The position numbers were made by a program, and so were the translations under genes. From an uncultured Gemmatimonadales bacterium (GTDB lineage: Bacteria; Gemmatimonadota; Gemmatimonadetes; Longimicrobiales; Longimicrobiaceae): 64,000 nucleotides of DNA. Every line of letters begins with the position of its first letter. The stretch's first letter is position 1. A model generated the notes under the pieces. The model saw only the letters and a program-made list of their open reading frames with translations, did no database searches and was not told where the DNA came from. This document shows positions 6,273 through 34,309 of the stretch, piece after piece. Location of the stretch: positions 416,001 through 480,000 of the forward strand of contig OY970303.1 in the NCBI GenBank assembly GCA_963716255.1, read 5' to 3'.

Positions 6273-6311
6273 CGGTTGAATCTGAACGTTGAGCGAACCG
6301 CCCTGTCGACG

Positions 6312-6450
6312 GCGGGTTCGGGCGTGCCCCCGGCTGGCGCCGGGGTCGGGCTTCGGCTCCGTAACGCAGCAAACAACGCTGCGTAACGGAGTCGAGCCCC
6401 CGCGAAACTACCCGCGGGGTCTCGCCCCTTCGGGCCGGAATCCCTCACGC
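6312..6450 (-). repeat. Structured ~135-nt intergenic repeat, copy 3
   Basis: Reverse-complement match; variable stem acgcagc/gctgcgt. Confidence 0.95.
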
Positions 6451-13081: not shown

Positions 13082-13218
13082 GCGGGTTCGGGCGTGCCCC
13101 CGGCTGGCGCCGGGGTCGGGCTTCGGCTCCGTAACGCAGCAAACAACGCTGCGTAACGGAGTCGAGCCCCCGCAAACAGCCGCGCGGTCTCGCCCCTTCG
13201 GGCCGAAATCCCTCACGC
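13082..13218 (-). repeat. Structured ~135-nt intergenic repeat, copy 4
   Basis: Reverse-complement match to the consensus. Confidence 0.95.
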
Positions 13219-13883: not shown

Positions 13884-15773
13884 TTACAACGCGGCGACTC
13901 TGGGCCCCGCGGTGCCGGTCCAGCCGGGGATGGCGTCGAACACCCGCAGCGCCAGCGGCACCTTGCCGAAGGGGGCGCTCACCTGCACCCCGGCGATCCG
14001 CGGGAGCGCCTCGCCCAGCATCTCCCGGGCGATGGCGATCCCCTCGTCCACCGCGGCCTCCTTGCCCACCTCGCTGGCGTGGCGCATCCGCTCGATCACC
14101 CGCTCCGGGACGACGACGCCGGGGACCTCGTTGGCCAGGAACTCGGCGTTGCGGGCGCTGACCAGCGGCCAGATCCCCGCCACCACCGGGATGCGGATCC
14201 CCTCGCGGTCGATGCGCTCCAGGAAGCGGAAGAGCTGCGCCACGTCGAACACCGGCTGGGTGATGGCGTACTCCGCCCCCGCCTCCACCTTCCAGTAGAA
14301 GCGCTTCAGCTCGTGCTCCAGGTCCTCGGCGCCGGGGTTCACCCCCACGCCGATGGTGAACTGCGTGGGCGCCCCCAGGGCGTTGCCACCGGGGTCGAGC
14401 CCGCGGTTCAGGCGCGACACCAGGTTGGTGAGGCCGATGGCGTCGATGTCGAAGACCGCCGTCGCGTCCGGGTACGGCCCCATCTTGGGCGGGTCGCCGG
14501 TGATGAGGAGCAGGTTGCGGAGCCCCAGCGCCTGCGCGCCCAGCAGGTCCGAGAGCATCCCCAGCAGGTTGCGGTCGCGGCAGCAGTAGTGCACCACCGC
14601 CTCGATCCCCACCCGCTGCTGGATGAGCACCGCCGTGGCCAGGGCGCCCATGCGGCTCTGCGCGCGCGGCCCGTCCGGGACGTTGACGCCGTCCACGCCG
14701 GCCTCGCGCAGGAGGCGGACGCCCTCCAGCATGGCCTCCGGACTGGAGCCGCGCGGCGGGACGATCTCCACCGTGGTCACGAACTCGCCGCGCGCCAGCT
14801 TCCCGCCCCATGCCGAGCGTTCCGCGAGCGGAGTGGGCTCCAGCCCCGCGTCCGCGGCCTGCTCCGGCTGCGAGGCGCTCACCCGCACCGAGCGGCCGGG
14901 CGCCAGCATGCGCACCGCGCCCGACATGCGGGTGATGTGCTCCGGCGTGGTGCCGCAGCACCCGCCCACGAAGCGCACCCCCTTGCGGATGAGCCGCGCG
15001 GCGTAGGTGGCCATGTACTCGGGCGACGCCATGTAGATGGTGCGCCCGTCCACCTCGCGGGGGAGCCCGGCGTTGGGCTGCGTGGAGAGCGGGTGCGCGG
15101 TGGCGGCGTGCATGCTCTCCACCGCCTGCAGCATGGCGCTGGGGCCCACGCTGCAGTTGAGCCCCACCACGTCGGCGCCCCACTCGGCCAGGCGCTCGGC
15201 CAGCGTGGCGGCCTCGGTGCCGAAGGGGGTGCGGCCGTCCTCGCGGATCACCATCTGCGCGACGACGGGGAGGTCGCACAGGGCGCGCACGGCGAGCACC
15301 GCCTGGCGCACCTCGTCCAGGTCGGCGAAGGTTTCCAGGACGAACAGGTCCACCCCGCCTTCCAGCAGCGCCTCGGCCTGCTCGGCGAACAGGGCGCGCG
15401 CCTCGGCGGCGGAGGTGGGCCCGAACGGCTCGATCCGCAGCCCCAGCGGCCCCATGGCGCCGGCCACGCACACGCGCTCGCCGGCCGCGGCGCGCGCGAT
15501 CTGCGCGGCGCGCACGTTGATGTCGCGGAGCCGCTCCTCCAGCCCGTACTTGGCCAGCTTGAGCCGGTTGGCGCCGTAGGAGTTGGTCTCCAGGATCTCC
15601 GCCCCGGCCCGGACGTAGGCGCGGTGGACGTCGCCCACCAGGTCGGGCTGGACCAGGTTCAGCTCGTCGTAGGAGCGGTTGATGTAGACGCCCCGCGAGT
15701 ACAGCATGGTGCCCATCGCACCGTCGAACAGGTGCGGGCGTCCGTCGTCCAGGAGCTCTCTAAAGTCGGCCAT
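13884..15773 (-). CDS. yitJ: Bifunctional homocysteine S-methyltransferase / methylenetetrahydrofolate reductase
   Basis: FDGAMGTML, GLNCSVGP, GGCCGTTPEHI; MTHFR half with HYCCRDRN, ITGDPPK, AITQPVFD. Confidence 0.93.
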   Translation of the reverse strand: MADFRELLDDGRPHLFDGAMGTMLYSRGVYINRSYDELNLVQPDLVGDVHRAYVRAGAEILETNSYGANRLKLAKYGLEERLRDINVRAAQIARAAAGERVCVAGAMGPLGLRIEPFGPTSAAEARALFAEQAEALLEGGVDLFVLETFADLDEVRQAVLAVRALCDLPVVAQMVIREDGRTPFGTEAATLAERLAEWGADVVGLNCSVGPSAMLQAVESMHAATAHPLSTQPNAGLPREVDGRTIYMASPEYMATYAARLIRKGVRFVGGCCGTTPEHITRMSGAVRMLAPGRSVRVSASQPEQAADAGLEPTPLAERSAWGGKLARGEFVTTVEIVPPRGSSPEAMLEGVRLLREAGVDGVNVPDGPRAQSRMGALATAVLIQQRVGIEAVVHYCCRDRNLLGMLSDLLGAQALGLRNLLLITGDPPKMGPYPDATAVFDIDAIGLTNLVSRLNRGLDPGGNALGAPTQFTIGVGVNPGAEDLEHELKRFYWKVEAGAEYAITQPVFDVAQLFRFLERIDREGIRIPVVAGIWPLVSARNAEFLANEVPGVVVPERVIERMRHASEVGKEAAVDEGIAIAREMLGEALPRIAGVQVSAPFGKVPLALRVFDAIPGWTGTAGPRVAAL

Positions 15774-16569: not shown

Positions 16570-16704
16570 GCGTGAGGGATTCCGGCCCGAAGGGGCGAGA
16601 CCCGCGGGCAGTTTCGCGGGGCTCGACTCCGTTGCACACAGTTTTATCGTGTGCTACGGAGCCGAAGCCCGACCCCGGCGCCAGCCGGGGGCACGCCCGA
16701 ACCC
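16570..16704 (+). repeat. Structured ~135-nt intergenic repeat, copy 5
   Basis: Variable stem gcacac/gtgtgc. Confidence 0.95.
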
Positions 16705-16728: not shown

Positions 16729-19700
16729 TCAGCTCGTGGAAAAATACTTCGCCGCCGGGTGATGAACGACCAGCGCCGCGGTCGACTGCTCCGGGTCCAG
16801 CTGGAACGCGCTGGTCAGCCCCACCCCGATCGTCTCCTGCACCGGCAGGATCCGGAACAGCGTCTCGTGCTGCTCCACGTCCGGGCACGCCGGGTACCCC
16901 CACGAGTAGCGCAGCCCGCGCGGCTCGGCGATCCCCAGCTCCTCGCGCACCCGGCGGTTGACCAGCTCCGCGGTGCCCTCGGCCGTCTGCACCGAGAACC
17001 CGTGCAGGAAGTACCCCTCGCTGTAGTCGCCGCCCTGGTTGCGCCCGGCGACGAACTCCGCGGCGCGGTCCCCGCTGGTCACCACCTGGAGCGGGAGGAC
17101 GTCCTCCGGGCCCCTGCCGTCCAGCGGGCGGAAGTAGTCGGCAAGGCACAGCTGCTCGCGGTCCTCCTGGCGCGGGAACGCGAAGCGCCCGATCTCGCGG
17201 GTGCGGTCCGCCGGGTCGAAGACCACCACCGCGTCGCCGTCGCGCCCCGCCGGGAAGTAGCCGTACACGGCGCGCGGGCGCAGCCACCCCTGCGTGCGGG
17301 CCTCGCGGGTGTAGCGGGCCAGGCGCGGCTCGAAGTCCTCGCGGACGATGCGGTCCCACTCCTCGCCCTTGAGGTTGCGGGCGCCCCACTGCATGCGGTA
17401 CAGCGTGTTGCGGTCGATGCACTCCACCACCGAGTCCACCGGGATGCGGTCCAGCACCTTCCACCCCCAGAAGGGCGGCGCGGGCGCTTCGACCACGGGG
17501 ACCGTGGGGTTCAGGCGCGAGGCGGGGCGCATTCCCGCGGCCTTTGCCTTGTTGGCCGCGTACTCCTCGCTGCGGCGCACCATCTCCTGGTTGTGCGCGC
17601 GGATGAAGTCGTCCGCGTCGCCCGCCGTGAGGCGGTCCATGGTGGACAGCCCCTCGAAGGCGTCCTTGCAGTAGAACATCCCCGACTCGTACGGGGTGCC
17701 CTCGGCCACCATGGCGGCGCCACGCACGAAGCTGGGGTTGATGGCCGCGCCGCCCACCAGCAGCGGGTACCGCATCCCGCGGCGGTGCAGCTCCTGCGCG
17801 CACAGCGGCATCTGCTTGGAGGTGGACACCAGCAGCGCGCTCAGCCCGATGGCGTCGGCGCCCACCTCCTCGGCCTTTTCCAGGATGGTGTTGACGGGAA
17901 CCTGCTTCCCCAGGTCGAACACCGTGTAGCCGTTGTTGGTGAGGATGGTGTTCACCAGCGACTTGCCGATGTCGTGCACGTCGCCGTACACGGTGGCGAG
18001 CACCACCTTGCCCTTGGTCTGCCCCTCGGCCTTTTCCAGGTAGTTTTCCAGCCGCGCCACCGCCTTCTTCATCACCTCGGCGCTCTGCAGCACGAAGGGG
18101 AGGATCAGCTCGCCGGCCCCGAACTTGTCGCCCACCTCCTTCATGGCCGGGAGCAGCACGTCGTTGAGCACCGGCACGGCGCCCTGCCGCTCCACCGCCC
18201 GGTCGATGAGCTCCTCGATCCCTTCCTTCTTGCGGTGCAGGATCTTCCAGTGGAGCGCGGCCTCGGGCTCCATCTCGGCCGTGGGGTCCACGGCCGAGTC
18301 GGTGTCGGCCGACTTGCCCTCGTAGAAGGCGATGAAGGCGGCGAGCGGGTCGTGGGCCTCGGTGCGGCGGTCCCAGATCAGGTCGTCGGCGAGGCGGCGC
18401 TCCTCCTCGGCGATCTCGAAGTACGGCTTGACGTGCGCCGGGTTGATGATGGCGGTGTCCAGCCCCGCCTCCACGCAGTGGTGGAGGAACACGGAGTTGA
18501 GCACGGCGCGCGCGTGCGGCGCCAGCCCGAAGCTGACGTTGGACACGCCCAGCGTGGTGAGCACGCCCGGCAGCTCGGCCTTGATGGCGCGGATCCCCTC
18601 GACGGTCTCCACGGCCGAGCGGCGGAACTCCTCGTCGCCGGTGGCCAGCGTGAAGGTGAGCGCGTCGAAGATCAGCGCGTCCGGCTGCAGCCCGTATTCC
18701 GTCGTCGCGATGTCGCGGATCTTGCGGGCGGCGGCGAGCTTGTCGCCCGCCGTCTTGCACATCCCGCCGAGGTCCTTGTCGATGGTCAGCGCGATCACCG
18801 CGGCCCCGTGCGCGGCCACCGCCGGGAGCACGGCGTCGATGCGCTCGCGCCCGTTCTCCAGGTTGATGGAGTTGACCACGGCGCGCCCCGGCGACTGCTT
18901 GAGCGCGGCGTCGATGGTCCCCGCCTCGGTGGAGTCGATGCAGAGCGGCGCCTCCACCCCCTGGGAAAGGAGCTTCACCACCGTGCGCATCTGCTCGTCC
19001 TCGTCCGGCCGCTCGGTGAGCGCGACGCACACGTCCAGCACGTGCGCGCCGCTCTCCGTCTGCTCGCGGGCCACCTCCAGCACGCCGTCGTAGTCGTCGG
19101 CCAGGAGGAAGCGCTTGACCTTGCGCGACCCCTGCGCGTTGACGCGCTCGCCGATCATGGTGGGCGCGGGCACCTGCACCAGGTCGGTGGCGCGGATCCC
19201 GGAGGAAAGGCGGGGGACGTACTCCACCTCGCGCCGCAGGGGCGCGGTGCCGCCCACTCGCGCCACCAGCTCGCGGATGTGGTCCGGCGTGGTGCCGCAG
19301 CACCCGCCCACCACGCCCACGCCCAGCTCCTTGACGAACTCCTCCAGCTGCGCGGCGAAGGGCTCCGGCGTCATGGGGTACACCGCGACGCCGCCCTCGT
19401 TGTGGGGGATGCCGGCGTTGGGGATGACGGAGATGGGGAGCCGGGTGTTCTCGGCCAGCCAGCGGATGGGCTGGCGCATGTGCTCGGGGCCGGTGGAGCA
19501 GTTGAGCCCCAGCACGTCCACCCGCAGCGCCTCCAGCGTCACCATCGCCGCGCCGATGTCGGTGCCCAGGAGCATGCGGCCGGAGGTGTCCAGCGTCACC
19601 TGCACCTGGAGCGCCACGGGCCTCCCCGCCTCCGCGATGGCCCGGCGGCACCCGAAGACCGCGGCCTTCACCTCCAGGATGTCCTGCGAGGTCTCGATCA

Positions 19701-20196
19701 GCAGCACGTCCACGCCGCCCTCCACCAGCGCCGCCGCCTGCTCGGCGAACACGGGGACCAGCTCGTCGAAGGTGATGTTGCCCAGCGTGGGGTCGCTCGC
19801 CGAGGGGAGGAACCCGGAGGGCCCGATGGAGCCGGCGACGAAGCGCGGCTTTTCCGGCGTGGCGAAGCGGTCGGCCACGCCGCGCGCCAGGCGGGCGGCG
19901 GCCACGTTGATCTCGCGCACCCGGTCGCCCAGTCCGTACTCGGCCAGGGTGATGCGGTTGGAGCGGAAGGTGTCCGTCTCCAGCACGTCGGCCCCCGCCT
20001 CCAGGTACGAGGCGTGGATCTCCTCGATGACGTCCGGCCTGGAGATCACCAGGTAGTCGTTGCACCCCTCCAGCCGCTCCCCGCCGAAGTCCGACGCGGA
20101 CAGGTCGTAGCGCTGGATGGAGGTCCCCATGGCGCCGTCGAAGACGACGACGCGCTGCCCGAGAGCCTGGAGGTACGGAGACTGGGTCGTGGACAT
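16729..20196 (-). CDS. metH: Cobalamin-dependent methionine synthase
   Basis: FDGAMGT, GGCCGTTPDHI, IGERVNAQGS, GDVHDIGK B12-binding motif, RYSWGYPACPD. Confidence 0.98.
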   Translation of the reverse strand: MSTTQSPYLQALGQRVVVFDGAMGTSIQRYDLSASDFGGERLEGCNDYLVISRPDVIEEIHASYLEAGADVLETDTFRSNRITLAEYGLGDRVREINVAAARLARGVADRFATPEKPRFVAGSIGPSGFLPSASDPTLGNITFDELVPVFAEQAAALVEGGVDVLLIETSQDILEVKAAVFGCRRAIAEAGRPVALQVQVTLDTSGRMLLGTDIGAAMVTLEALRVDVLGLNCSTGPEHMRQPIRWLAENTRLPISVIPNAGIPHNEGGVAVYPMTPEPFAAQLEEFVKELGVGVVGGCCGTTPDHIRELVARVGGTAPLRREVEYVPRLSSGIRATDLVQVPAPTMIGERVNAQGSRKVKRFLLADDYDGVLEVAREQTESGAHVLDVCVALTERPDEDEQMRTVVKLLSQGVEAPLCIDSTEAGTIDAALKQSPGRAVVNSINLENGRERIDAVLPAVAAHGAAVIALTIDKDLGGMCKTAGDKLAAARKIRDIATTEYGLQPDALIFDALTFTLATGDEEFRRSAVETVEGIRAIKAELPGVLTTLGVSNVSFGLAPHARAVLNSVFLHHCVEAGLDTAIINPAHVKPYFEIAEEERRLADDLIWDRRTEAHDPLAAFIAFYEGKSADTDSAVDPTAEMEPEAALHWKILHRKKEGIEELIDRAVERQGAVPVLNDVLLPAMKEVGDKFGAGELILPFVLQSAEVMKKAVARLENYLEKAEGQTKGKVVLATVYGDVHDIGKSLVNTILTNNGYTVFDLGKQVPVNTILEKAEEVGADAIGLSALLVSTSKQMPLCAQELHRRGMRYPLLVGGAAINPSFVRGAAMVAEGTPYESGMFYCKDAFEGLSTMDRLTAGDADDFIRAHNQEMVRRSEEYAANKAKAAGMRPASRLNPTVPVVEAPAPPFWGWKVLDRIPVDSVVECIDRNTLYRMQWGARNLKGEEWDRIVREDFEPRLARYTREARTQGWLRPRAVYGYFPAGRDGDAVVVFDPADRTREIGRFAFPRQEDREQLCLADYFRPLDGRGPEDVLPLQVVTSGDRAAEFVAGRNQGGDYSEGYFLHGFSVQTAEGTAELVNRRVREELGIAEPRGLRYSWGYPACPDVEQHETLFRILPVQETIGVGLTSAFQLDPEQSTAALVVHHPAAKYFSTS

Positions 20197-20574: not shown

Positions 20575-21942
20575 TTGGCTGACAGCGGCCACTACAAGGA
20601 CGCGATCCTGGACGCCCTCGCGACGAGGGCCAACGTCGCCCAGTTCGTCAGCTTCGATCCGGGGCTGCGGCAGCGTCACGCCTGGATTCGCGGCCACGAG
20701 CCGAACACCTCGCTGGGCACGGCGGAAGGGGCGGTCGGCGCGATGCTCGCCTCGGCGCCCGAGGGTTCGGTGAACATCCGCAGCTTCGAGCCCCACGACC
20801 CCAAGAGCCGCGAGTTCATCTACGGCCGCAGGAGCGCGGACGAGGTGCTCGCGGACCTGCGGCGGCTGGCGGCGGAGGGACTCTACACCATCGTCAACGA
20901 AACCGTGAACGTGGACGACGGCGGCGTCTCGGGGGTCTCCTTCGGCAACGTGGTGGAGTTCGCCCCCGCGGATACACCGCGGGCGGTTGAAAAGCCGGGG
21001 ACGGCGGCGCTCACCCGCGACCTGGCGGGCCGTGTGTTCCGCACCGTGTACGGCTTCGCGCCAGCCCTCCCGGAACGTCCGGAGCTCCGCGTGGAGTTCA
21101 GCATCCACCCGCTGCGCCGCGGCTACCGGCACGACCACACCATCGTCTGGGAGATGGAGGAGCTCGCGGAGCCTCCCACGGAGGCGCACGTCGGATGGCC
21201 CAACCTCTTCAGCCGGATGCTGGGCGACAAGGCGTACGGCCTGCTCGTCGCCGACGCGCTGGGACTGCGGGTGCCGAACACGCAGGCCTTTCCCCGCCGC
21301 CTGGCGCCGTTCGCGTTCGGGAGCGACACGGGGCTGGCCGAGGCCTGGATCCGCACCTGCCCCACGGTGCAGCAGCCGGGCCGCTTCACCACCCGCCGCG
21401 GGTGGCTGGACCCCTACCGGCTGATGCAGGAGGAGGACCCGGAGGGAACGGCGATCGCATCCATCCTCGCCCAGCAGGGGGTGGACGCGAACCACTCCGG
21501 GGCGCTCATCTCGCAACCGGACGGCGAGCCGCTGGTGGAGGGGGTCTCCGGCTTCGGGGACCCGTTCATGGTGGGCGAGGCCCCGCCGGAGGAGCTGCCC
21601 GCACGGGTGGTGGCGGACGTGCTGGGGGTGTACCGGCGCGCGTCGGCCATGCTGGGGCCGGTGCGCTTCGAGTGGGTGCACGACGGCCGGGAGGTGTGGG
21701 TGGTTCAGCTGCACCGCGGGGCCAGCGCCACCCACGGCCGGGTCATCTTCCCGGGCGGGGCGGAGCGCTTCCACCGCTTCGACGTCGCCGGGGGGATCGG
21801 CGCGCTTCGCGAGCTGATCGCGAGGCTCGACGGGAGCGGCGAGGGAGTGGTGCTGGTGGGCCGGGTGGGCGTCACCAGCCACTTCGGCGACCTGCTTCGC
21901 CGCGCGCGCGTCCCGTCGCGCATCGAGGCGCCGGAGGACTGA
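20575..21942 (+). CDS. Dikinase-like protein (PEP-synthase/PPDK-type ATP-grasp plus phospho-His swivel domain)
   Basis: TTG start after aaggag. GDKAYGL..LRVP, WIRT, ILAQQGVDANHSGALI, VEGVSGFGDPFMVG, RFEWVHDGREVWVVQLH resemble PPDK_N; VGVTSHFGDLLRRARVPS resembles GGxTSHAAIVARELGIP. Confidence 0.65.
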   Translation: MADSGHYKDAILDALATRANVAQFVSFDPGLRQRHAWIRGHEPNTSLGTAEGAVGAMLASAPEGSVNIRSFEPHDPKSREFIYGRRSADEVLADLRRLAAEGLYTIVNETVNVDDGGVSGVSFGNVVEFAPADTPRAVEKPGTAALTRDLAGRVFRTVYGFAPALPERPELRVEFSIHPLRRGYRHDHTIVWEMEELAEPPTEAHVGWPNLFSRMLGDKAYGLLVADALGLRVPNTQAFPRRLAPFAFGSDTGLAEAWIRTCPTVQQPGRFTTRRGWLDPYRLMQEEDPEGTAIASILAQQGVDANHSGALISQPDGEPLVEGVSGFGDPFMVGEAPPEELPARVVADVLGVYRRASAMLGPVRFEWVHDGREVWVVQLHRGASATHGRVIFPGGAERFHRFDVAGGIGALRELIARLDGSGEGVVLVGRVGVTSHFGDLLRRARVPSRIEAPED

Positions 21943-22060
21943 TCTCTCCCCCGGTCGGCTCTCCCTTCAGGAAAAACCCGGCTCCCGTCCATCAAATCAC
22001 CTGGATCCCGCGACCCGGCGGGGTCACCAGCCGTCCTCATCCTCCGGCATCCACACCGCC

Positions 22061-24895
22061 ATGAGCGAGACGACACCGCCAGAAGGCCGTTCCGACGAGG
22101 CGACGACAGAACCAGGCGAGGGAAAGCGGGAAGCCGGGGAAGCAACGCCGAAGCCCGCGGAGGGAATGCCGCCGAAACCCGCGGTGGAAGCGCCGCTGAA
22201 GCCAGCGGAGGAAGCGCCGCCGAAACCCGCGGTGGAAGCGCCGCCGAAGCCCGCGGAGGGAGCTCCGCCGAAGCTGCCGCCGAAGCCAGGCAGGCGGGAG
22301 TTGGCGCCCGACGACGACGGACCGAAGCCGCGTAGCGCAGGAATCCCCTGGATCGTGGGCCTCGTCGCAGCGCTCGCCGGCGCGGTGGCGGTGATAGGCA
22401 TCAACAGCTTCCTTGGGCTGGGGCTGGGATGCGGGGACGTCTGCCGGGCGGACGAGGGGAGGACCGTGCAGGAGGAAGCGCAGTCCGGGGGCCCGCCGTC
22501 CTCCGTCGTCTTCGCCCACGTCGCCGACGCCCGGATCGGAGCGGCCGACGACACCACCAGCGCGTCCAACCAGGCCGCCCTCGCGGCGGTGATGCGCGCC
22601 ATCCGCGCCCAGCCGGGGGCCGAGACTCCCCGCTTCCTTGTGCTTTCGGGCGCCGTCCTGGGGGACACCTCCGTCGCCGGGGAGGCGCCCGCGCCACCGC
22701 CTCAGGGAGCGCCTGCCGTCCCCCCACCCTCGCCGGCCGTCCAGGACACGACCCCGGTCCCCGCTGCGCCGGCCGTTCAGGGCGCGGCCGCGGTCCCCGC
22801 GTCCACCGGGGGACAGGCCATCGGCAGGTGGCGGGACCAGGCCGATTCGCTGGCGGCCGTGCTTGCCTCGAGCCCCGTTGCGAACGTGTACCTGGCGTCC
22901 GCCCGTCCCCTGCCGGCGGGCTTCCTCGCCCGGCTGCGGGAGCGGCTGCGCCGGAGCGGAGTCGGCGTCCAGGACCTCACCGCCTGCTACGACGCGGCCG
23001 GCGTCGCCCCGGGAGCTTGCAGGACCGGAGTACCCGGAACGCGGTTCGTCCTGGTGGGCTACCGCTCCACGCCGGGCGCCGACACGTCGTCCGGCGGGTC
23101 GCTCGAGCGGCTCGGCACGCTGCTGAGCCAGACGCCCCGGGCCAACCAGCGGGCCGTCGTGGTCGCGGGCAGCCTGCCGCCGGGCGGCGGGGGCAGGCCT
23201 GCCTCACCGGAAGGCGAGGCATCCGGTGAGCCCCCGGACACGGCGTCCCGCTGGACGCGGCTCATCCGGCCGGACGACGTGGCCGCCGTGCTGGGTCCCG
23301 CCGACGAAGCGTCGCCCGACGGCGAAGGAAAGTTCCGGCCGGCTCCCCCCCTGGGGGTGGCCGACCCCGGGAGCGCGGTCGCGAGGAACGGGTTCGCCCT
23401 GGTGCGGCTCGGCCCGGGCGGCGCCACGCAGCGGATCGTCTCCCACGACCGGCAGACGGGGATGCTTTCCGGGGAGAGCCTCGCGGCGGCCCCCGCAGCC
23501 GAGGAGCAGGGCGCATTCCGGCGATTGTTCGAGTGGCTGTGGAGCCTCCCGAACAACACGCGCGACCTGGCCCGCGCAACCGTGCTCCTCCTGGGGCTCC
23601 TGTTCGCCTTCCTCACCGTGGCCGCTCTCTGGGAGGTTCCCGGCAAAACCAGGATGGTGACGGTGCAGCTCGCCGCGATGCCGGCGGAAGGGGCCGCGAA
23701 CGCGTCCCCCGTGCAGCAGGTCCAGCAGGTCCAGGTCCCGGACTCCCTCCCCGGCGGAAGCGTTTTCCAGGGGAACCTGGCGCGCACCGTCTGGAGCGGG
23801 CTCACCGGGATCGCGGCGGTCACGCTGCTCACGCAGTTCTGGCAGCTGTCCGGGATCAAGGCCGAAGCCCTGTACGTCGTGATGTTCGGGGTTTCCTTCC
23901 TGGCGCTGCTCCTGACGATGGCGTTCATCCGGGCCGTCGCGGAAGGGCTTCGCAGCCGGATAGCGAGCGCGCGCCTCATCCCGACGTGGGATCCGCCGGC
24001 CAGGCTGGAAGGCCAGGGCGCGGCCATGTACTGGACCGCTCACCGCTCCCGGTCGTGGGTGACCTACTGGGTCCACCGCGCCTGGAGATGGCTCGTTTCC
24101 CTCCGGGAAACCCTGCTGGTGTTCGTCGACACGTTCGTCACCGTGCTGATGGGGCAGCGCTACGACGCGAACCTGGTGTGGGAGAAGCGCATCGTCGAGG
24201 ACCAGCGCGCCCTGCTCCGGATGGCGCACCTGCTCCGGGACAACATCGGCGAAGCGGTCCGCGGAGCGGTGCTGGGGAAAACCGGCCGCAGCGGAGGCTG
24301 CCCGGAGCTGGAGAAGGGGATTCGCGTGAGCATCAGCGTGCTCTCGGACGACGGGACGACGGCGTTCTACATCTCCTCGTCCGCTCGCAGCCTCGACCGG
24401 CGGTTCGGGCAGAAGTCGCTCGCCTGGCTCGCGATCTACGCACGCGAGCCGCGCTGGTGGGTGGACACGTACCCCGAGGATTCCATCATCGCCTTCGACA
24501 ACACGGTCGGAGCTCTCCCCGGGCCGACCGGGCCGCTGATGCTGGCCGACTACTTCGAGCCCCGCTTCCGTTCGGATTACGAGGCGTTCATCGTCGTCCC
24601 TCTTCCATGGAATCGCGGCGACGTGGCGGAGGGGGGAAGGCGTGGGGGGCTCCACATCTCGTTCGAGAAGGCCGACTGGTTCAAAGCGCTGTGGCCTTCC
24701 CTGCACGACGCCGGCCTACCGGCCACACCCCCTCCGGGCGACATTTACGGGGCGAGCTTCGACTTCCTCACGGACCTGCAGAGCGAGACCCTCCTCGCGG
24801 TGCTGGAGCAGGCACTGGACATGCTGGGGGTGGTCGTGTCGAGGTTCGACCAGACCATTTACGAGAGCCGCATCCGCGGGCACAACGCCGGCTGA
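22061..24895 (+). CDS. Large membrane protein: Pro/Glu repeats, TM, degenerate metallophosphoesterase-like domain, ~3 TM, GAF-like C-terminus
   Basis: KPAxEAPP repeats; FAHVADARIG and PRFLVLSGAV resemble decayed phosphoesterase motifs; hydrophobic helices; IRVSISVLSDDG...AFIVVPLP...GGLHISFE is GAF-like. Confidence 0.6.
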   Translation: MSETTPPEGRSDEATTEPGEGKREAGEATPKPAEGMPPKPAVEAPLKPAEEAPPKPAVEAPPKPAEGAPPKLPPKPGRRELAPDDDGPKPRSAGIPWIVGLVAALAGAVAVIGINSFLGLGLGCGDVCRADEGRTVQEEAQSGGPPSSVVFAHVADARIGAADDTTSASNQAALAAVMRAIRAQPGAETPRFLVLSGAVLGDTSVAGEAPAPPPQGAPAVPPPSPAVQDTTPVPAAPAVQGAAAVPASTGGQAIGRWRDQADSLAAVLASSPVANVYLASARPLPAGFLARLRERLRRSGVGVQDLTACYDAAGVAPGACRTGVPGTRFVLVGYRSTPGADTSSGGSLERLGTLLSQTPRANQRAVVVAGSLPPGGGGRPASPEGEASGEPPDTASRWTRLIRPDDVAAVLGPADEASPDGEGKFRPAPPLGVADPGSAVARNGFALVRLGPGGATQRIVSHDRQTGMLSGESLAAAPAAEEQGAFRRLFEWLWSLPNNTRDLARATVLLLGLLFAFLTVAALWEVPGKTRMVTVQLAAMPAEGAANASPVQQVQQVQVPDSLPGGSVFQGNLARTVWSGLTGIAAVTLLTQFWQLSGIKAEALYVVMFGVSFLALLLTMAFIRAVAEGLRSRIASARLIPTWDPPARLEGQGAAMYWTAHRSRSWVTYWVHRAWRWLVSLRETLLVFVDTFVTVLMGQRYDANLVWEKRIVEDQRALLRMAHLLRDNIGEAVRGAVLGKTGRSGGCPELEKGIRVSISVLSDDGTTAFYISSSARSLDRRFGQKSLAWLAIYAREPRWWVDTYPEDSIIAFDNTVGALPGPTGPLMLADYFEPRFRSDYEAFIVVPLPWNRGDVAEGGRRGGLHISFEKADWFKALWPSLHDAGLPATPPPGDIYGASFDFLTDLQSETLLAVLEQALDMLGVVVSRFDQTIYESRIRGHNAG
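22147..22285 (+). repeat. 24-bp tandem coding repeat (PKPAxEAP)
   Basis: About five imperfect copies of gccgaarcccgcggwggaagcgcc. Confidence 0.85.
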
Positions 24896-24951
24896 GCCGG
24901 GACGCCGGGCCGGTCGCCTGCCACTGACCACCTGCGAGCGCGAGGAAAAGA

Positions 24952-25590
24952 TTGACCTGGGAGTACGAACTGGACACGGATGAGCGGAGACACACCCGCA
25001 CGTTCCGCGAGGAATGTGCACTCGCGTTCGCCGCGCTGGACTGCATCCTGAACGGAGACAAGGGGATCTACGCCAGCAGCGAGCTCACCACCGGCCGGCG
25101 GGCGTACGGCCTGTTCGACGAGCACGGAGTCCACAGCGCGCACGAGCTGCGCGACAAGCTCGGCGAGGACCCGCACCGCAGCCTCGTCCTGATCCCCAAC
25201 TGCGAGGCCGCGGCCGACTTCGCCCGGCGCCTGCGGGAGCGCTTCGGCGGGACGGAGCCGGTGATCACCCCCGCCCCGTTCGAGGCGCCGGGGTGGAGCC
25301 AGGCGGAGTACCTCCACTTCTGGGAGACGCTGATCCGCACCCGGACCCGGGCCGTCTACTTCAACGAGGCGTGGGAGTACAGCAACGGCTGCACCTTCGA
25401 GTTCGCCGTGGCCCACGACGCGGGTGTCCCCACCTTCGACGCGCGCTGCGAGCCGCTGGAGTTGGAGCGCGGCGTCGAGCTCGTCGCGCGGGCCGTGCGG
25501 GAGCTGGAGTCCCGCGGTGTGGACCCGGCCCGCCTCCGCACCCACCTCGGGCGGCTGGAAGGAATGCGGGCCCCGGCCGGCTCGCCCTGA
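24952..25590 (+). CDS. Nucleoside 2-deoxyribosyltransferase-like (DUF4406-like) protein
   Basis: IYASSELTTG, VITPA, and AVYFNEAWEYSNGCTFEFAVAHDAGVPTF matching WExSxGxxxExxxAxxxG; TTG start after gagga. Confidence 0.7.
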   Translation: MTWEYELDTDERRHTRTFREECALAFAALDCILNGDKGIYASSELTTGRRAYGLFDEHGVHSAHELRDKLGEDPHRSLVLIPNCEAAADFARRLRERFGGTEPVITPAPFEAPGWSQAEYLHFWETLIRTRTRAVYFNEAWEYSNGCTFEFAVAHDAGVPTFDARCEPLELERGVELVARAVRELESRGVDPARLRTHLGRLEGMRAPAGSP

Positions 25591-25811: not shown

Positions 25812-27344
25812 ATGACATTCCGGCTTCTCCCCCTCCGCGCCGCGGCCCCGCTCCTCCTCGCGGCGGCGCTGGCCGCGTGCGCCGAGCGCGCCGATTCGCC
25901 GCTCTCCCCCGCCCCGGCGCCGCGCGCCGACGTCGCGGCCGCCGCGGTGACGGGAACCATCGTGCTGGCGGGCGGCGGCGCGGAGGGAGACGTGGGCGAC
26001 ACCTCGTCGTGGAGCTACAAGCTGTACAGGGAGGTGGTGGAGAACGGCGACGTGGACGGCGACGGCGTGGTCCGCGTGGCGGTGCTGACGGTGGACGCGT
26101 CCACCTCGTTCATCACCGACTACTTCGAGTGGATCGGGACCACGCTGGGCGTGCCGGTGGACGCCACGATCTACCAGGTGACCACGCGGGCGGAGGCCAA
26201 CGACCCGGCGCGGGTGGGCGCGGTGGCCAACGCCGACGCGGTCTTCCTCAAGGGCGGAGACCAGGGCGTGTACTACGACCAGTGGAACGGCACCCTCCTG
26301 GAAACGCACGTGCGCACCGTGGTGGAGACGCGCGGCGGGGCCGTGGGCGGCACCAGCGCGGGGGCCATGAGCCAGTCGCAGTTCTGCCTGTGCGGCAGCG
26401 CCGACCTGGTCTCCGCCGACGTGATGACCAACTCGCACACCTCCTTCCTCAACGATGTGAGCGACGGCGGCACCGGCATCCACACCGATTTCCTGAATTT
26501 CCTGGGCGGCGCCGTGGTGGACACACACTTCACCGAGCGCGCGCGCTTCGGGCGGCTGCTGGGGACCATGGCGAAGGCCGCCGAGGACAACGCCGCGCCC
26601 GGGATCCTGGGCATCGGCATCGAGCGGCAGACAGGGCTCGCCATCCGCGGCGGGGTGGCCGAGGTGATCGGCAACGGCGAGGTGTCGTTCGTGCAGCAGA
26701 CGCCCGCCACGGCGCGCATCCGCACGCCGGGCAAGCCGCTCGTGTACACGCACCTGCGGGTGGACCGGCTCACGCACGGGTGGACGTACGACCTGGGCGC
26801 GAAGCTGCCGGGCACGGCGGCGCCGGGGGTGCTGGCCGTCAGCTACGCCGGCGACGGCGCGGCCAACTCCGGGGCGCTCAGCATCGCGGGCTCCACGGAG
26901 CGGGACAACTCCAGGTTCGAGAAGGTGGCCACGTACTCCAGCAAGGACTACTCGCTGGCGAACACCTCGGCGAGCGTGTTCGTGCGCAGCGGCGTGGGCT
27001 TCACGGACGCGGGCAACTCCGGCAATCGCGGCTTCAAGCAGGAAACGCTGTTCCGCGCCCTGTACGACGTGCCGGCGTACAGCGGGCTCCTGCTGTTTTC
27101 CGGCGGCACCGCGTCGCGCGTGGCCGCCAGCCCGGACGTGCTCTCGTTCTCCGGCGCGGGGACCATCGTGGTGGACGGCAGGACGGTGGCGAGCCGCGGG
27201 CTTTCGCCGTACAAGTCGTACCAGGCCACCAGCAAGGGGACGCTCAGGGCGGCGGCGCTCACCGGCCTCACGGTGCACGTGCTCGCCGAGTCCGCCACCA
27301 CGGGCAAGCGCTACAACACGCGGACTCATGCGGTGGTGCCGTGA
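25812..27344 (+). CDS. Cyanophycinase-like S51 peptidase lipoprotein
   Basis: LAAC lipobox; IVLAGGG, ADAVFLKGGDQ, GGTSAGAM, DTHFTERARFGRL, GIGIE. Confidence 0.88.
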   Translation: MTFRLLPLRAAAPLLLAAALAACAERADSPLSPAPAPRADVAAAAVTGTIVLAGGGAEGDVGDTSSWSYKLYREVVENGDVDGDGVVRVAVLTVDASTSFITDYFEWIGTTLGVPVDATIYQVTTRAEANDPARVGAVANADAVFLKGGDQGVYYDQWNGTLLETHVRTVVETRGGAVGGTSAGAMSQSQFCLCGSADLVSADVMTNSHTSFLNDVSDGGTGIHTDFLNFLGGAVVDTHFTERARFGRLLGTMAKAAEDNAAPGILGIGIERQTGLAIRGGVAEVIGNGEVSFVQQTPATARIRTPGKPLVYTHLRVDRLTHGWTYDLGAKLPGTAAPGVLAVSYAGDGAANSGALSIAGSTERDNSRFEKVATYSSKDYSLANTSASVFVRSGVGFTDAGNSGNRGFKQETLFRALYDVPAYSGLLLFSGGTASRVAASPDVLSFSGAGTIVVDGRTVASRGLSPYKSYQATSKGTLRAAALTGLTVHVLAESATTGKRYNTRTHAVVP

Positions 27345-27361
27345 CTGAACTGATCTGAGTG

Positions 27362-27800
27362 GCGGGTTCGGGCGTGCCCCCGGCTGGCGCCGGGGTCGGG
27401 CTTCGGCTCCGTAAGCGAGCAAACGACGCTCGCCAACGGAGTCGAGCCCCCGCGAAACTGCCCGCGGGGTCTGAGCAGCCGGGATGATGCTTGACACTTT
27501 GGACCGGGAGGATGCTTGACACTCCCTCCCGTTCCTACCAAGGACTTACGCTGTTTCTGACCAGAGAGCAGTGAGGGATCCCCTCAGTGCTACCCTCTCC
27601 TACGGCAGGGGGCAACACCGAGCAGCAGTGAGGGTTACCCTACCTAAGCATTCAGCAAAGCGCTTGGGATTCGATCCATTTCCTAGTCGCTGCGCCGAAG
27701 CCTCTCTCATCAGGGAGTGTCAAGCATCCTCCCGGTCTATTCTGTCAACCATCAACCCGGTCCATACCGTCTCGCCCCTTCGGGCCGTAATCCCTCACGC
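27362..27800 (-). repeat. Structured repeat copy 6, split by an insertion (27362-27472 and 27769-27800)
   Basis: Consensus ...ggggtct|cgccccttcgggccg... is interrupted at gtct. Confidence 0.92.
27473..27768. mobile_element. Non-autonomous ~296-bp MITE with doubled subterminal inverted repeats
   Basis: Perfect 26-bp IR gaccgggaggatgcttgacactccct (27502-27527 / 27712-27737), plus a second outer copy at each end; gtc(t) duplicated at 27469-27472 and 27769-27772; lower GC than the flanks. Confidence 0.85.
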
Positions 27801-31132: not shown

Positions 31133-31264
31133 GGTCCGGGCGTGCCCCCGCTGGCGCGGGGTCGGGCTGCGGCTCCGTAGCAGACGAAACGACCGTCTGC
31201 AACGGAGGCGAGCCCCGGCAAACTGCCGCCGGGTCTCGCCGCTTCGCGCTCGCATCCCTCACGC
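31133..31264 (-). repeat. Structured ~135-nt repeat, copy 7 (most divergent)
   Basis: rc gcgtgagggatgcgagcgcgaagcggcgagacccggcggcagtttgccggggctcgcctccgttgcagacg...cgtctgctacggagccgcagcccgaccccgcgccagcgggggcacgccc. Confidence 0.9.
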
Positions 31265-32194: not shown

Positions 32195-32328
32195 GCGTGA
32201 GGGATTTCGGCCCGAAGGGGCGAGACCGCGCGGCTGTTTGCGCGGGCTCGACTCCGTTACGCAGCGTTGTTTGCTGCGTTACGGAGCCGAAGCCCGACCC
32301 CGGCGCCAGCCGGGGGCACGCCCAAACC
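32195..32328 (+). repeat. Structured ~135-nt intergenic repeat, copy 8
   Basis: Stems cgcgc/gcgcg and acgcagc/gctgcgt. Confidence 0.95.
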
Positions 32329-32355: not shown

Positions 32356-34251
32356 TCAGGCCACCGTCTTCGCCCAGTCCAGCCACTCCTGCTGCCGCTC
32401 GCGCGACACCCCCCACCGGCTCCCATCCACCCCGAACCAGTACTGGCGGATCTCCTCCGGCGCACTCGCCCGGCGCATCACCTCGTCGGGCTCCATCCGG
32501 AACAGCTCCATGATGGTGCGGATCATGGCGAGATCGCTCGCGGAGTGGCGAGGCGTGGCACCTTCCGGCCTGTGCGCCCGCGCGACGACGGCACGGCGCG
32601 GCACGTACACCCACTCCTCGGTGAACACCGGCGTCTCGTCCACCTCGGGATAGGTGAGCACCGTCTTCACCACCTCCTCGAAGTGGTCCATGCGGTGCTT
32701 GAAGCTCTGCTCCATCCCGTACATGCCCAGCAGGTAGTGAAGCGCCAGGTCCTTCGCCTTCACCTCCACGCCGTCGCAGGCGAAGAAGAAGGGATCCTGC
32801 GTCTCGTGGAGCTCCAGGTCCTGGAATCCCGCCGAGAAGAGCATCACCGCCATCTGCACCGGCCCGATGTGCGGGATGTCGTGCCCCGTCTTGCTGTGCT
32901 TGTCCACCACGTGGTGGAACCACTGCCCCGCCGGCCCCTCGTCGAAGAAGTCGTGCACCACGACCACCGCCCCCGGCTTCATCACCAGGCGCGCCTCGCG
33001 CGTGGCGTCGAACATGTCGGGGATGTGGTGCGTGCCGTAGGCGAAGAGCACCCCGTCCAGCGAGTCCGCCAGGAAGGTGCGCGACAGCTGCGTGGCGTCC
33101 TCGCGCGAGGGGAGCCCCCACAGCCCCGCCCGGTAGAACATGTGCGGGGAGATGTCGTTGGTCACGATCAGCGCCCCGCCCTGCTGGTCCCGCCCGGCCG
33201 CCACGAACGCCGCGGCGCGGTCCGCCAGCGGCTCGGCGCCCGGCACCTCGGCGAGCCACGCCGCCTCGCCCGCGCTCACCAGGCCCCGCAGCTCCGCGCC
33301 GGAGATGGAGATCTCCTCCGAGACCGCCGGCTCGCCGGCATGCGCGGCCAGCAGGCGCGCCGTGTAGCGGGTCTCGCCCTGCACCGCCCCGTCCGCGGCG
33401 GCATCCTCCGCCCGGCGCACCAGCAGCACCGCGACGTGCGGGTCCACGGCCGCGAGGCGCTCCAGCAGCCCGCGCGCGGCGGCGGGAAGCTCGGCTCCGT
33501 CCGCGGGGAAGAGGCCGGCGTCCTCCACGATCACCAGGCGCGTGTCGGCCACGCCCTTTTCCGCCTCCAGCAGGCGCCACACGTACCCGTCGCCCCCCAG
33601 CACGTCCAGGAAGATCCCCGGCTCGCCCTCGCGGGCGCCCAGGAGGTCCAGGAGCATGCGGGCGCCCATCCAGCGGCTGGCCTGGAAGCTCGCCATGCCG
33701 CGGGTGTATTCCGCGCCGCGCCCGCGCAGGTCGAAGTCGCCGCCCATGATGTCGCGCCAGATGGGCGCGTACTCGTTCTCCTGGCGGATCACCCCGGCCG
33801 CCGCGGACCAGCGCGGGTGCGCGGCCATGCGCGCCTTCCACTCCGCCTCCAGGTCGCGGAGCCCCTTGTCCTCCAGCATCTCCAGCTCGTCCGCGCTCCA
33901 CAGCGGCGAGAAGGAGACGCGGGCGCGCTCCCGCAGCGCCTCGAAGGCAGCGGGCGGGAGGTGGTCGCGCAGGAGGCGCCACACGCCCGCCTCGGACGCC
34001 CCGCCCACGATGACGCGGTTCAGTGCCTCCGAGTGGCCGTGCAGGTAGGCGCGCTCCTCGCGCTCCACGCCGGGAAGGGCGGTGATGGGCAGCCCCAGGC
34101 CGTCGCGGATCCGCCTGGCCTCGCGCGAGAGCGGCAGGGGAGCGGCGGCGCCCGGCGCGCCGTGGCGCGCCCCGGCACCTTCCGCGGGCGCCGCGGGAGA
34201 GGCCTGCGCCCTCCCGGCCGCCAGCCCGCTCGCCCTCTGGTCGATCGCCAT
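32356..34251 (-). CDS. Class I SAM-dependent methyltransferase with large insertion (BGC tailoring)
   Basis: IFLDVLGGDG (motif I), IVTNDISPHM, DSLDGVLFAYGTHHIPD, LVMKPGAVVVVHD; RBS aggagga. Confidence 0.8.
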   Translation of the reverse strand: MAIDQRASGLAAGRAQASPAAPAEGAGARHGAPGAAAPLPLSREARRIRDGLGLPITALPGVEREERAYLHGHSEALNRVIVGGASEAGVWRLLRDHLPPAAFEALRERARVSFSPLWSADELEMLEDKGLRDLEAEWKARMAAHPRWSAAAGVIRQENEYAPIWRDIMGGDFDLRGRGAEYTRGMASFQASRWMGARMLLDLLGAREGEPGIFLDVLGGDGYVWRLLEAEKGVADTRLVIVEDAGLFPADGAELPAAARGLLERLAAVDPHVAVLLVRRAEDAAADGAVQGETRYTARLLAAHAGEPAVSEEISISGAELRGLVSAGEAAWLAEVPGAEPLADRAAAFVAAGRDQQGGALIVTNDISPHMFYRAGLWGLPSREDATQLSRTFLADSLDGVLFAYGTHHIPDMFDATREARLVMKPGAVVVVHDFFDEGPAGQWFHHVVDKHSKTGHDIPHIGPVQMAVMLFSAGFQDLELHETQDPFFFACDGVEVKAKDLALHYLLGMYGMEQSFKHRMDHFEEVVKTVLTYPEVDETPVFTEEWVYVPRRAVVARAHRPEGATPRHSASDLAMIRTIMELFRMEPDEVMRRASAPEEIRQYWFGVDGSRWGVSRERQQEWLDWAKTVA

Positions 34252-34309
34252 ACGTCTTCCTCCTTGATCACGGTCGGATGCCGCCGCAGGCGGCACGATA
34301 CGGGGACGG

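Follow-up and report, generated by a model that had tools for sequence, protein, structure and literature searches.

The nucleotide-signal systems type II Thoeris and Pycsar each couple a signal enzyme to a membrane effector. According to PMC13434031, Kongming converts dAMP through dIMP into a dITP signal; it relies on a deaminase, a kinase of the phage itself, and a Sir2 NADase. In Clover, as given in bioRxiv 10.1101/2025.07.09.663793, an accessory enzyme suppresses the toxicity of a deoxynucleoside triphosphatase (dNTPase). These systems were compared with a three-gene set, P1–P2–P3, located in a 64,000-bp stretch of DNA (the window) from an uncultured Gemmatimonadales bacterium of the Longimicrobiaceae (assembly GCA_963716255.1, contig OY970303.1, positions 416,001 to 480,000, forward strand). 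P1–P2–P3 proved to be a genuine modular system, so far uncharacterised, and P1 to belong to a new family of predicted His-relay enzymes, the closest known counterparts of which are pyruvate phosphate dikinase (PPDK), phosphoenolpyruvate (PEP) synthase (PEPS), and rifampin phosphotransferase (RPH); P3 resembled nucleoside deoxyribosyltransferases (NDTs). The components had the following window coordinates:

20575-21942, plus strand: P1, 455 aa, TTG start, predicted His-relay phosphotransferase of PPDK/RPH type, without a Pfam family
20575-21183, plus strand: P1 N-terminal domain, residues 1-203
21196-21729, plus strand: P1 ATP-grasp nucleotide-binding domain, residues 208-385
21730-21939, plus strand: P1 His-swivel domain, compact and bearing the TSH motif, residues 386-455 (His436 codon at 21880-21882)
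22061-24895, plus strand: P2, 944 aa, ATG start, membrane protein
22493-23500, plus strand: P2 calcineurin-like phosphoesterase domain, metal-binding motifs lost in the window copy
23576-23947, plus strand: P2 membrane segments, about residues 506-629
24173-24892, plus strand: P2 conserved C-terminal domain, candidate ligand sensor
24952-25590, plus strand: P3, 212 aa, TTG start, NDT/DUF4406-like predicted N-glycosidase
25399-25401, plus strand: conserved P3 Glu150 codon

Like type II Thoeris and Pycsar, the module paired a predicted TIR/NDT-fold nucleotide-processing enzyme with exchangeable membrane proteins, but it matched no TIR, macro, or cyclase family, its effector domains were unrelated, and it possessed a predicted upstream kinase or reductase. 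With Kongming it would share a deoxynucleotide-derived signal made through a base-acting enzyme and a kinase step, but here the module itself encoded the kinase or reductase, and its partner was a membrane protein. The dGTPase genes at 13 of 80 P1 loci (see below) resembled Clover and the anti-phage dGTPases that act alone, but CloB is a nucleotidyltransferase according to the Clover preprint, P1 was a predicted His-relay enzyme, and the window trio contained no dGTPase. By the tests run, the module belonged to no known nucleotide-signal system, and it would work alike if the model below holds. Pfam, NCBIfam, and PADLOC scans of P1, P2, and P3 gave no family above cut-off (PADLOC 2.0.0: none for any of the three at E 0.1). 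A literature search limited to openly readable papers without their supplements found no description of the module, and comparative-genomics supplements may list the family; passages of PMC9503650 and bioRxiv 10.64898/2026.01.15.699771 mentioned neither a dikinase nor an NDT. No named system was found for the trio, in line with an earlier sequence-only reading of this DNA, which recognised none.

Gene linkage and partner exchange

The three open reading frames were co-oriented with gaps of 118 bp (P1–P2) and 56 bp (P2–P3) and divergent from metH, P1 and P3 had TTG starts, all as read before from the sequence, and each gene was present in one copy in the genome. The best 80 of 266 P1 genome loci were analysed, the neighbourhood being taken as within 4 kb of P1. 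A P3 homolog lay near P1 in 44 of the 80 (at least seven phyla), six of these being P1–P3 fusions; further fusions were found in proteins P0378, P0391, P0392, and P0338 and on viral contigs L173, L174, and L179. A membrane protein stood beside P1 and P3 in 33 of the 44 loci: P2 type in 14, F7 in 11, F8 in 7, and F14 in 1 (F7, F8, and F14 being families from clusters made in this analysis), and at L045 the F7 protein was fused to the P3 homolog. P2 homologs occurred near P1 in 15 loci, 14 of them with P3 and the fifteenth on a contig that ended. Across all 80 loci, the other families near P1 were F7 (11), F8 (7), F14 (5), and AAA ATPase (5), and the enzymes were AddB (19), dGTPase (13), PfkB-NDT (7), QueC (7), and ribonucleotide reductase (0), while 23 loci had none of P3, dGTPase, and PfkB-NDT. 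P1, P2, and P3 are almost certainly a linked module; the synteny that the sequence-only reading had put up for test was borne out by the recurrence of the gene set across phyla and by the fusions.

In its own phylum, P1 was carried by 3 of 301 sampled genomes (own included), all with the trio, and the other two had the three genes in the same order, a clustering beyond chance. In a second phylum sample (401 genomes, centre genome included), P1 was present in six and P3 in three, and every P3 carrier had P1. The nearest named relatives came from Longimicrobiaceae. At 90% identity, the P1 family comprised no fewer than 2385 clusters; Novosphingobium, Sphingomonas, and Mesorhizobium are cultured carriers.

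The trio was rejected as an obligate unit: P1 often stood alone, and a reductase took its place in one clade. On the P1 tree (FastTree), the AddAB-linked group mixed 13 loci without and 7 with P2 and P3; because these interleave, the pair was lost or gained repeatedly, and at one site in Thermoanaerobaculia P2 and P3 repeatedly dropped out as a pair. No P3 homolog was found anywhere in nine genomes with a P3-less P1 locus (the positive control was detected; many are metagenome-assembled and maybe incomplete). Among metagenome P3 loci (best 80 of 187), P1 was present in 19, ribonucleotide reductase in 39, and both in none; the corresponding figures for the 33 loci of at least 5 kb were 16, 13, and 0, with neither in 4. 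P2 accompanied the reductase and P3 in 14 metagenome loci and P1 and P3 in 14. The swapped-in reductase passed the NrdJ_Z cut-off as a class II ribonucleoside-diphosphate reductase, and of 12 copies aligned, 11 retained the catalytic motifs. All 39 reductase loci fell within one P3 clade (SH-aLRT 100; quick tree, 111 rows), so the swap represented one event that was kept, not 39 independent ones. This replacement of P1 within a trio that is not fixed was absent from the sequence-only reading.

Several loci showed further arrangements: (i) in L122, L155, and L162, a reductase-clade P3 gene had as its neighbour another nrdJ, divergent and encoded on the opposite strand, which in L122 and L155 adjoined the cassette with 34-36% identity to the cassette reductase, and which in L155 may be the copy counted as cassette reductase; (ii) L218 (G435:C97 18605-28369) had the order addB, P1, addA, P1 with two P1 paralogs; and (iii) in L058, L063, L064, L070, L071, L084, L172-L174, and L179, an AAA ATPase (roughly 780-850 aa, its N-terminal domain lacking annotation) was directly upstream of the P3–P1 pair or fusion.

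Predicted activities of P1, P3, and P2

P1 had two features of the His-swivel dikinase superfamily (PPDK, PEPS, RPH), namely a PPDK-type ATP-grasp domain and a swivel domain with a conserved TSH histidine; H436 was kept in 110/110 aligned sequences, so the earlier call of a dikinase-like enzyme with a TSH His stands. The structural alignment of P1 took in the His domain, reaching residue 844-847 of RPH and residue 475 of PPDK. The His motif matched those of PPDK/PEPS in hhalign (E 0.0008, 23 columns). In the N-terminal domain, K8 was conserved in 109/110 and R69, E109, R136, R172, E174, and E193 in 110/110 aligned sequences; this domain likely binds the acceptor and is possibly a second, divergent PPDK-type nucleotide-binding domain. 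PPDK_N was present in 11-50% of members of its three best named Atlas clusters (scores 0.78-0.82), which is a lead only, and an internal duplication of P1 was not significant by hhalign with or without secondary structure or by profile alignment (z 1.6, 200 shuffles), although one hhalign comparison is weak, its PEP-synthase reference profile having been partly mis-cut.

Compared to RPH, PPDK, and PEP synthase, P1 was about half the size, its presumed acceptor domain was N-terminal and not alignable to the RIF-binding or pyruvate domains, and it scored below Pfam PPDK_N and PEP-utilizers. P1 was rejected as PPDK or PEP synthase proper, since the C-terminal PEP/pyruvate TIM barrel was absent and the protein stopped right behind the His domain at residue 455, and as RPH proper, since no central rifampin-binding domain separated the ATP-grasp (208-385) from the His domain (386-455). 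A PDB sequence search with P1 gave chance-level matches only, gp139 of Bacillus phage G, whose annotation is pyruvate phosphate dikinase, was matched in structure only, and one longer P1 fusion protein was found in a search too crowded to be strong. P1, the fold of which is predicted, is very probably a His-relay kinase, and its substrate is probably a (deoxy)nucleotide; the P1 family is a large group of unannotated enzymes with dikinase machinery.

P3 was predicted to adopt a flavodoxin-like fold (top VIA rows: 1t1j, 7m5h, NDTs, and MilB) with a conserved Glu, as in NDT-like N-glycosidases (DUF4406), and it had the conserved Tyr, Ser, and Glu common to the N-glycosidases NDT, DNPH1, and MilB. 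E150, which we take to be the nucleophile, was found in 111/116 aligned sequences, and the NDT-like enzyme of the sequence-only reading thereby kept both its fold and its Glu. P3 scored 13.8 bits against Pfam DUF4406 (gathering score 22), which 2 of 19 relatives passed, and a plasmid P3 homolog carried the DUF4406 annotation; Foldseek with the P3 model gave nothing at E 0.001, and a PDB sequence search gave chance-level matches only. Compared to NDT/DNPH1/MilB and DUF4406 proteins, P3 was longer (212 aa) with extra helices, was tied to P1 or the reductase plus membrane proteins, and had an activity that is only predicted. In P0383, a cytidylate-kinase-like domain was fused to a P3 homolog. The P3 relatives P0257, P0261, and P0266 carried a tandem pair of NDT-like domains, of which the second seems degenerate.

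P2 displayed a Pro-rich start, a hydrophobic stretch (94-112) followed by Cys, a degenerate phosphoesterase, membrane segments, and a conserved C-terminal domain. The calcineurin-like phosphoesterase domain had gone unremarked in the sequence-only reading. Pfam Metallophos matched it in the homologs at L035 (E 8.6e-8) and, under cut-off, at L011 (E 5.5e-4), and the four metal-binding motifs were intact in 24/40 homologs, some of the others being truncated; the window P2, having lost all four, was rejected as an active calcineurin-like metallophosphoesterase. A lipobox-like Cys or lipoprotein-like signal stood at the start of 17/24 homologs, and the phosphoesterase domain is likely outside the cytoplasm. 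Hydropathy peaked at 506-524 and 596-629, and a further conserved hydrophobic stretch of the alignment, near 575-594, was under the hydropathy threshold. The C-terminal domain was conserved across 38 aligned members and hhalign matched it weakly (E 0.024, 104 columns) with the C-terminal domain from a different family of membrane partners; it was GAF-like by eye only, as to the GAF-like pocket that the sequence-only reading gave to the membrane protein, and no Pfam or PDB profile matched.

Proposed mechanism and rival explanations

From the observed gene order, conservation, fusions, and partner swaps, together with the predicted folds, we infer substrates, a product, a signalling direction, and a defence role. 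P1 would phosphorylate deoxynucleoside monophosphates (dNMPs), because nucleoside diphosphates would be the common output of the reductase, of a nucleoside monophosphate kinase, and of a His relay that passes one phosphate; the exclusive P1/reductase swap and the kinase-fused P3 homolog point to deoxynucleotides as P1 product and P3 substrate. Other P1 neighbours acting on deoxynucleotides were dGTPase, PfkB-NDT, and QueC, and on plasmids a YfbR-like HD protein and a kinase-PurA fusion. Since ribonucleotide reductase replaces P1 in one lineage, a signal made from DNA building blocks is the likely output of the set. Phage infection or DNA degradation would provide the input by changing the deoxynucleotide pool; as in RPH and PPDK, the C-terminal ATP-grasp of P1 would charge His436 with phosphate taken from ATP; the swivel would hand the phosphate to a dNMP on the N-terminal domain, giving the diphosphate (dNDP), or, should pyrophosphate be transferred, the triphosphate (dNTP); Glu150 of P3 would serve for release or exchange of the base, yielding a deoxyribose-phosphate-type signal; and P2, or a substitute membrane protein, would bind this product and act as effector. 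This full model, in which P1 phosphorylates dNMP, P3 cleaves the product, and P2 is the effector in anti-phage defence, is tentative, with a little less than an even chance of holding throughout.

A defence role as such is slightly favoured, by analogy, from the patchiness, mobility, and exchangeable membrane partners of the module and its likeness to Kongming, Clover, Thoeris, and Pycsar. Among 140 of 315 flanking genes scanned with PADLOC (without a control), there were 14 matches, the convincing long ones in the dGTPase-type loci L079 and L078 and none convincing beside trio-type loci. The two dGTPases scanned matched the PADLOC dGTPase model (E <=1e-118), L057 contained a PycTM-like gene, and single plasmid P1 loci had toxin-antitoxin, ubiquitin-like, and PUA-calcineurin neighbours. 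The sequence-only reading was partly upheld, in its folds, catalytic residues, and synteny; its GAF-like pocket and an enrichment beside defence genes stay conjectural for the trio.

A bolder form of the model would see in the module a novel kind of immunity by nucleotide signalling: dNDP made within the module, by a two-nucleotide-site His-relay kinase or a dedicated class II ribonucleotide reductase, would be converted by the NDT-like enzyme into a base-free or base-exchanged deoxyribose-phosphate messenger for interchangeable membrane effectors, and phages would have borrowed the P1 kinase for replication or counter-defence; this form is doubtful. To our knowledge, dNMP kinase chemistry by a two-nucleotide-site His relay has not been described. 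If deoxynucleotides are indeed the product of P1 and the substrate of P3, this would add a new nucleotide phosphorylation route, give DUF4406-like proteins a function, and reveal a signalling module with its own reductase.

Nucleotide salvage or sanitation is a possible though rather improbable explanation: P1 would recycle dNMPs from DNA degradation or repair, P3 would remove damaged or modified nucleotides (DNPH1/MilB-like), and P2 would be a surface nucleotide-scavenging phosphoesterase, with no signalling or defence. It is consistent with AddB in 19 of the 80 P1 neighbourhoods, P1 twice interleaved with addB and addA in G435, P1 behind a nuclease–helicase pair on a plasmid and in phage-like replication modules (see below), the phosphoesterase motifs intact in over half of P2 homologs, and trio loci without convincing defence neighbours; but the AddB link came almost wholly from one related Acidobacteriota group, unrelated membrane proteins filled the same slot, the window P2 kept its C-terminal domain while its phosphoesterase degenerated, and salvage would hardly account for an additional reductase next to another nrdJ or for partners that destroy dGTP.

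In a guard or toxin-antitoxin arrangement, which is unlikely, P3 would be a nucleotide-destroying toxin, P2 would restrain it or sense envelope damage, and P1 or the reductase would be an antidote, refilling the pool drained by P3. NDT-type toxic effectors are known from retrons, P2 and P3 were lost as a pair while P1 stayed, and dGTPases also accompany P1, which resembles the accessory enzyme of Clover that suppresses dNTPase toxicity (bioRxiv 10.1101/2025.07.09.663793). However, the P3–P1 fusions (6/80) and the P3–membrane fusion (L045) fit substrate hand-over or local signalling, and the membrane partners in 33/44 P1+P3 loci were without obvious enzyme-inhibitor features. A small-molecule or envelope pathway, with P1 phosphorylating a sugar or non-nucleotide acceptor (compare RPH, Hpe kinase, and glucan water dikinase) and P2 and P3 processing the product at the membrane, is very improbable: the nearest P1 folds, RPH and HpeI, do have non-nucleotide acceptors and the P1 acceptor domain matched no assigned family, but the recurring partners were deoxynucleotide enzymes and no glycosyltransferase or biosynthetic genes recurred among the representative neighbours scanned.

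Mobile carriers and surroundings of the window locus

P1 was found on 14 plasmids, 10 of them conjugative; its neighbours in six plasmid regions were dGTPase plus PfkB plus QueC, AAA plus DUF4406, or YfbR-like HD plus the kinase-PurA fusion, and on an Agrobacterium plasmid it lay downstream of a PD-(D/E)XK plus UvrD pair. Ten IMG/VR contigs carried P1: four with AAA plus a P3 homolog, two in RecA/DnaB/primase clusters, and two near a single-stranded DNA-binding protein (SSB) gene; none of 50,697 GenBank phages had a match. In L178 and L180 and in L175 and L176, P1 stood inside such clusters, which resemble phage replication modules (RecA, DnaB, primase, DnaJ, nuclease), or close to SSB, and there it is possibly a phage gene for nucleotide supply or counter-defence. 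Rhizobial loci L068, L072, L075, L078-L081, and L083 contained P1 plus dGTPase beside a PfkB-NDT fusion, QueC, and an OGG/HhH glycosylase; their QueC and OGG matched PADLOC models, and the set is a candidate base-modifying defence cassette. In L085-L088, P1 was accompanied by a YfbR-like HD protein, DUF7002, and a kinase-adenylosuccinate-synthetase fusion, with an additional PUA-calcineurin gene in L087.

The window itself was no defence island, and the overall GC of the region was nothing unusual. The G+C content at third codon positions was 0.883 for P2, 0.938 for P1, and 0.943 for P3, and 0.981, 0.981, and 0.966 for metH, the gene at 13884-15773, and ffh, agreeing with the earlier remark that the middle gene is richer in third-position A/T than its housekeeping neighbours. 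Promoter and terminator scans gave nothing usable. The surrounding features were:

16729-20196, minus strand: metH, divergent from P1–P2–P3
20281-20346, minus strand: SAM-II riboswitch 5' of metH, 44.1 bits, at the Rfam gathering score
1272-1374, 2243-2352, 6311-6422, 13082-13190, 16601-16704, 27341-27520, 31133-31236, and 32223-32328: copies of an about 110-bp repeat

The riboswitch was rejected as a control of the trio, since it faced and belonged to metH. The repeat was interspersed and intergenic, with 855 blastn matches genome-wide (818 of at least 80 bp), and is a candidate REP-like or small mobile element. A cyanophycinase-like S51 peptidase gene (25812-27344, score under the NCBIfam cut-off) also lay 3' of the trio in L003, and the 630-aa protein encoded at 32356-34296 on the minus strand had a split class I methyltransferase domain.
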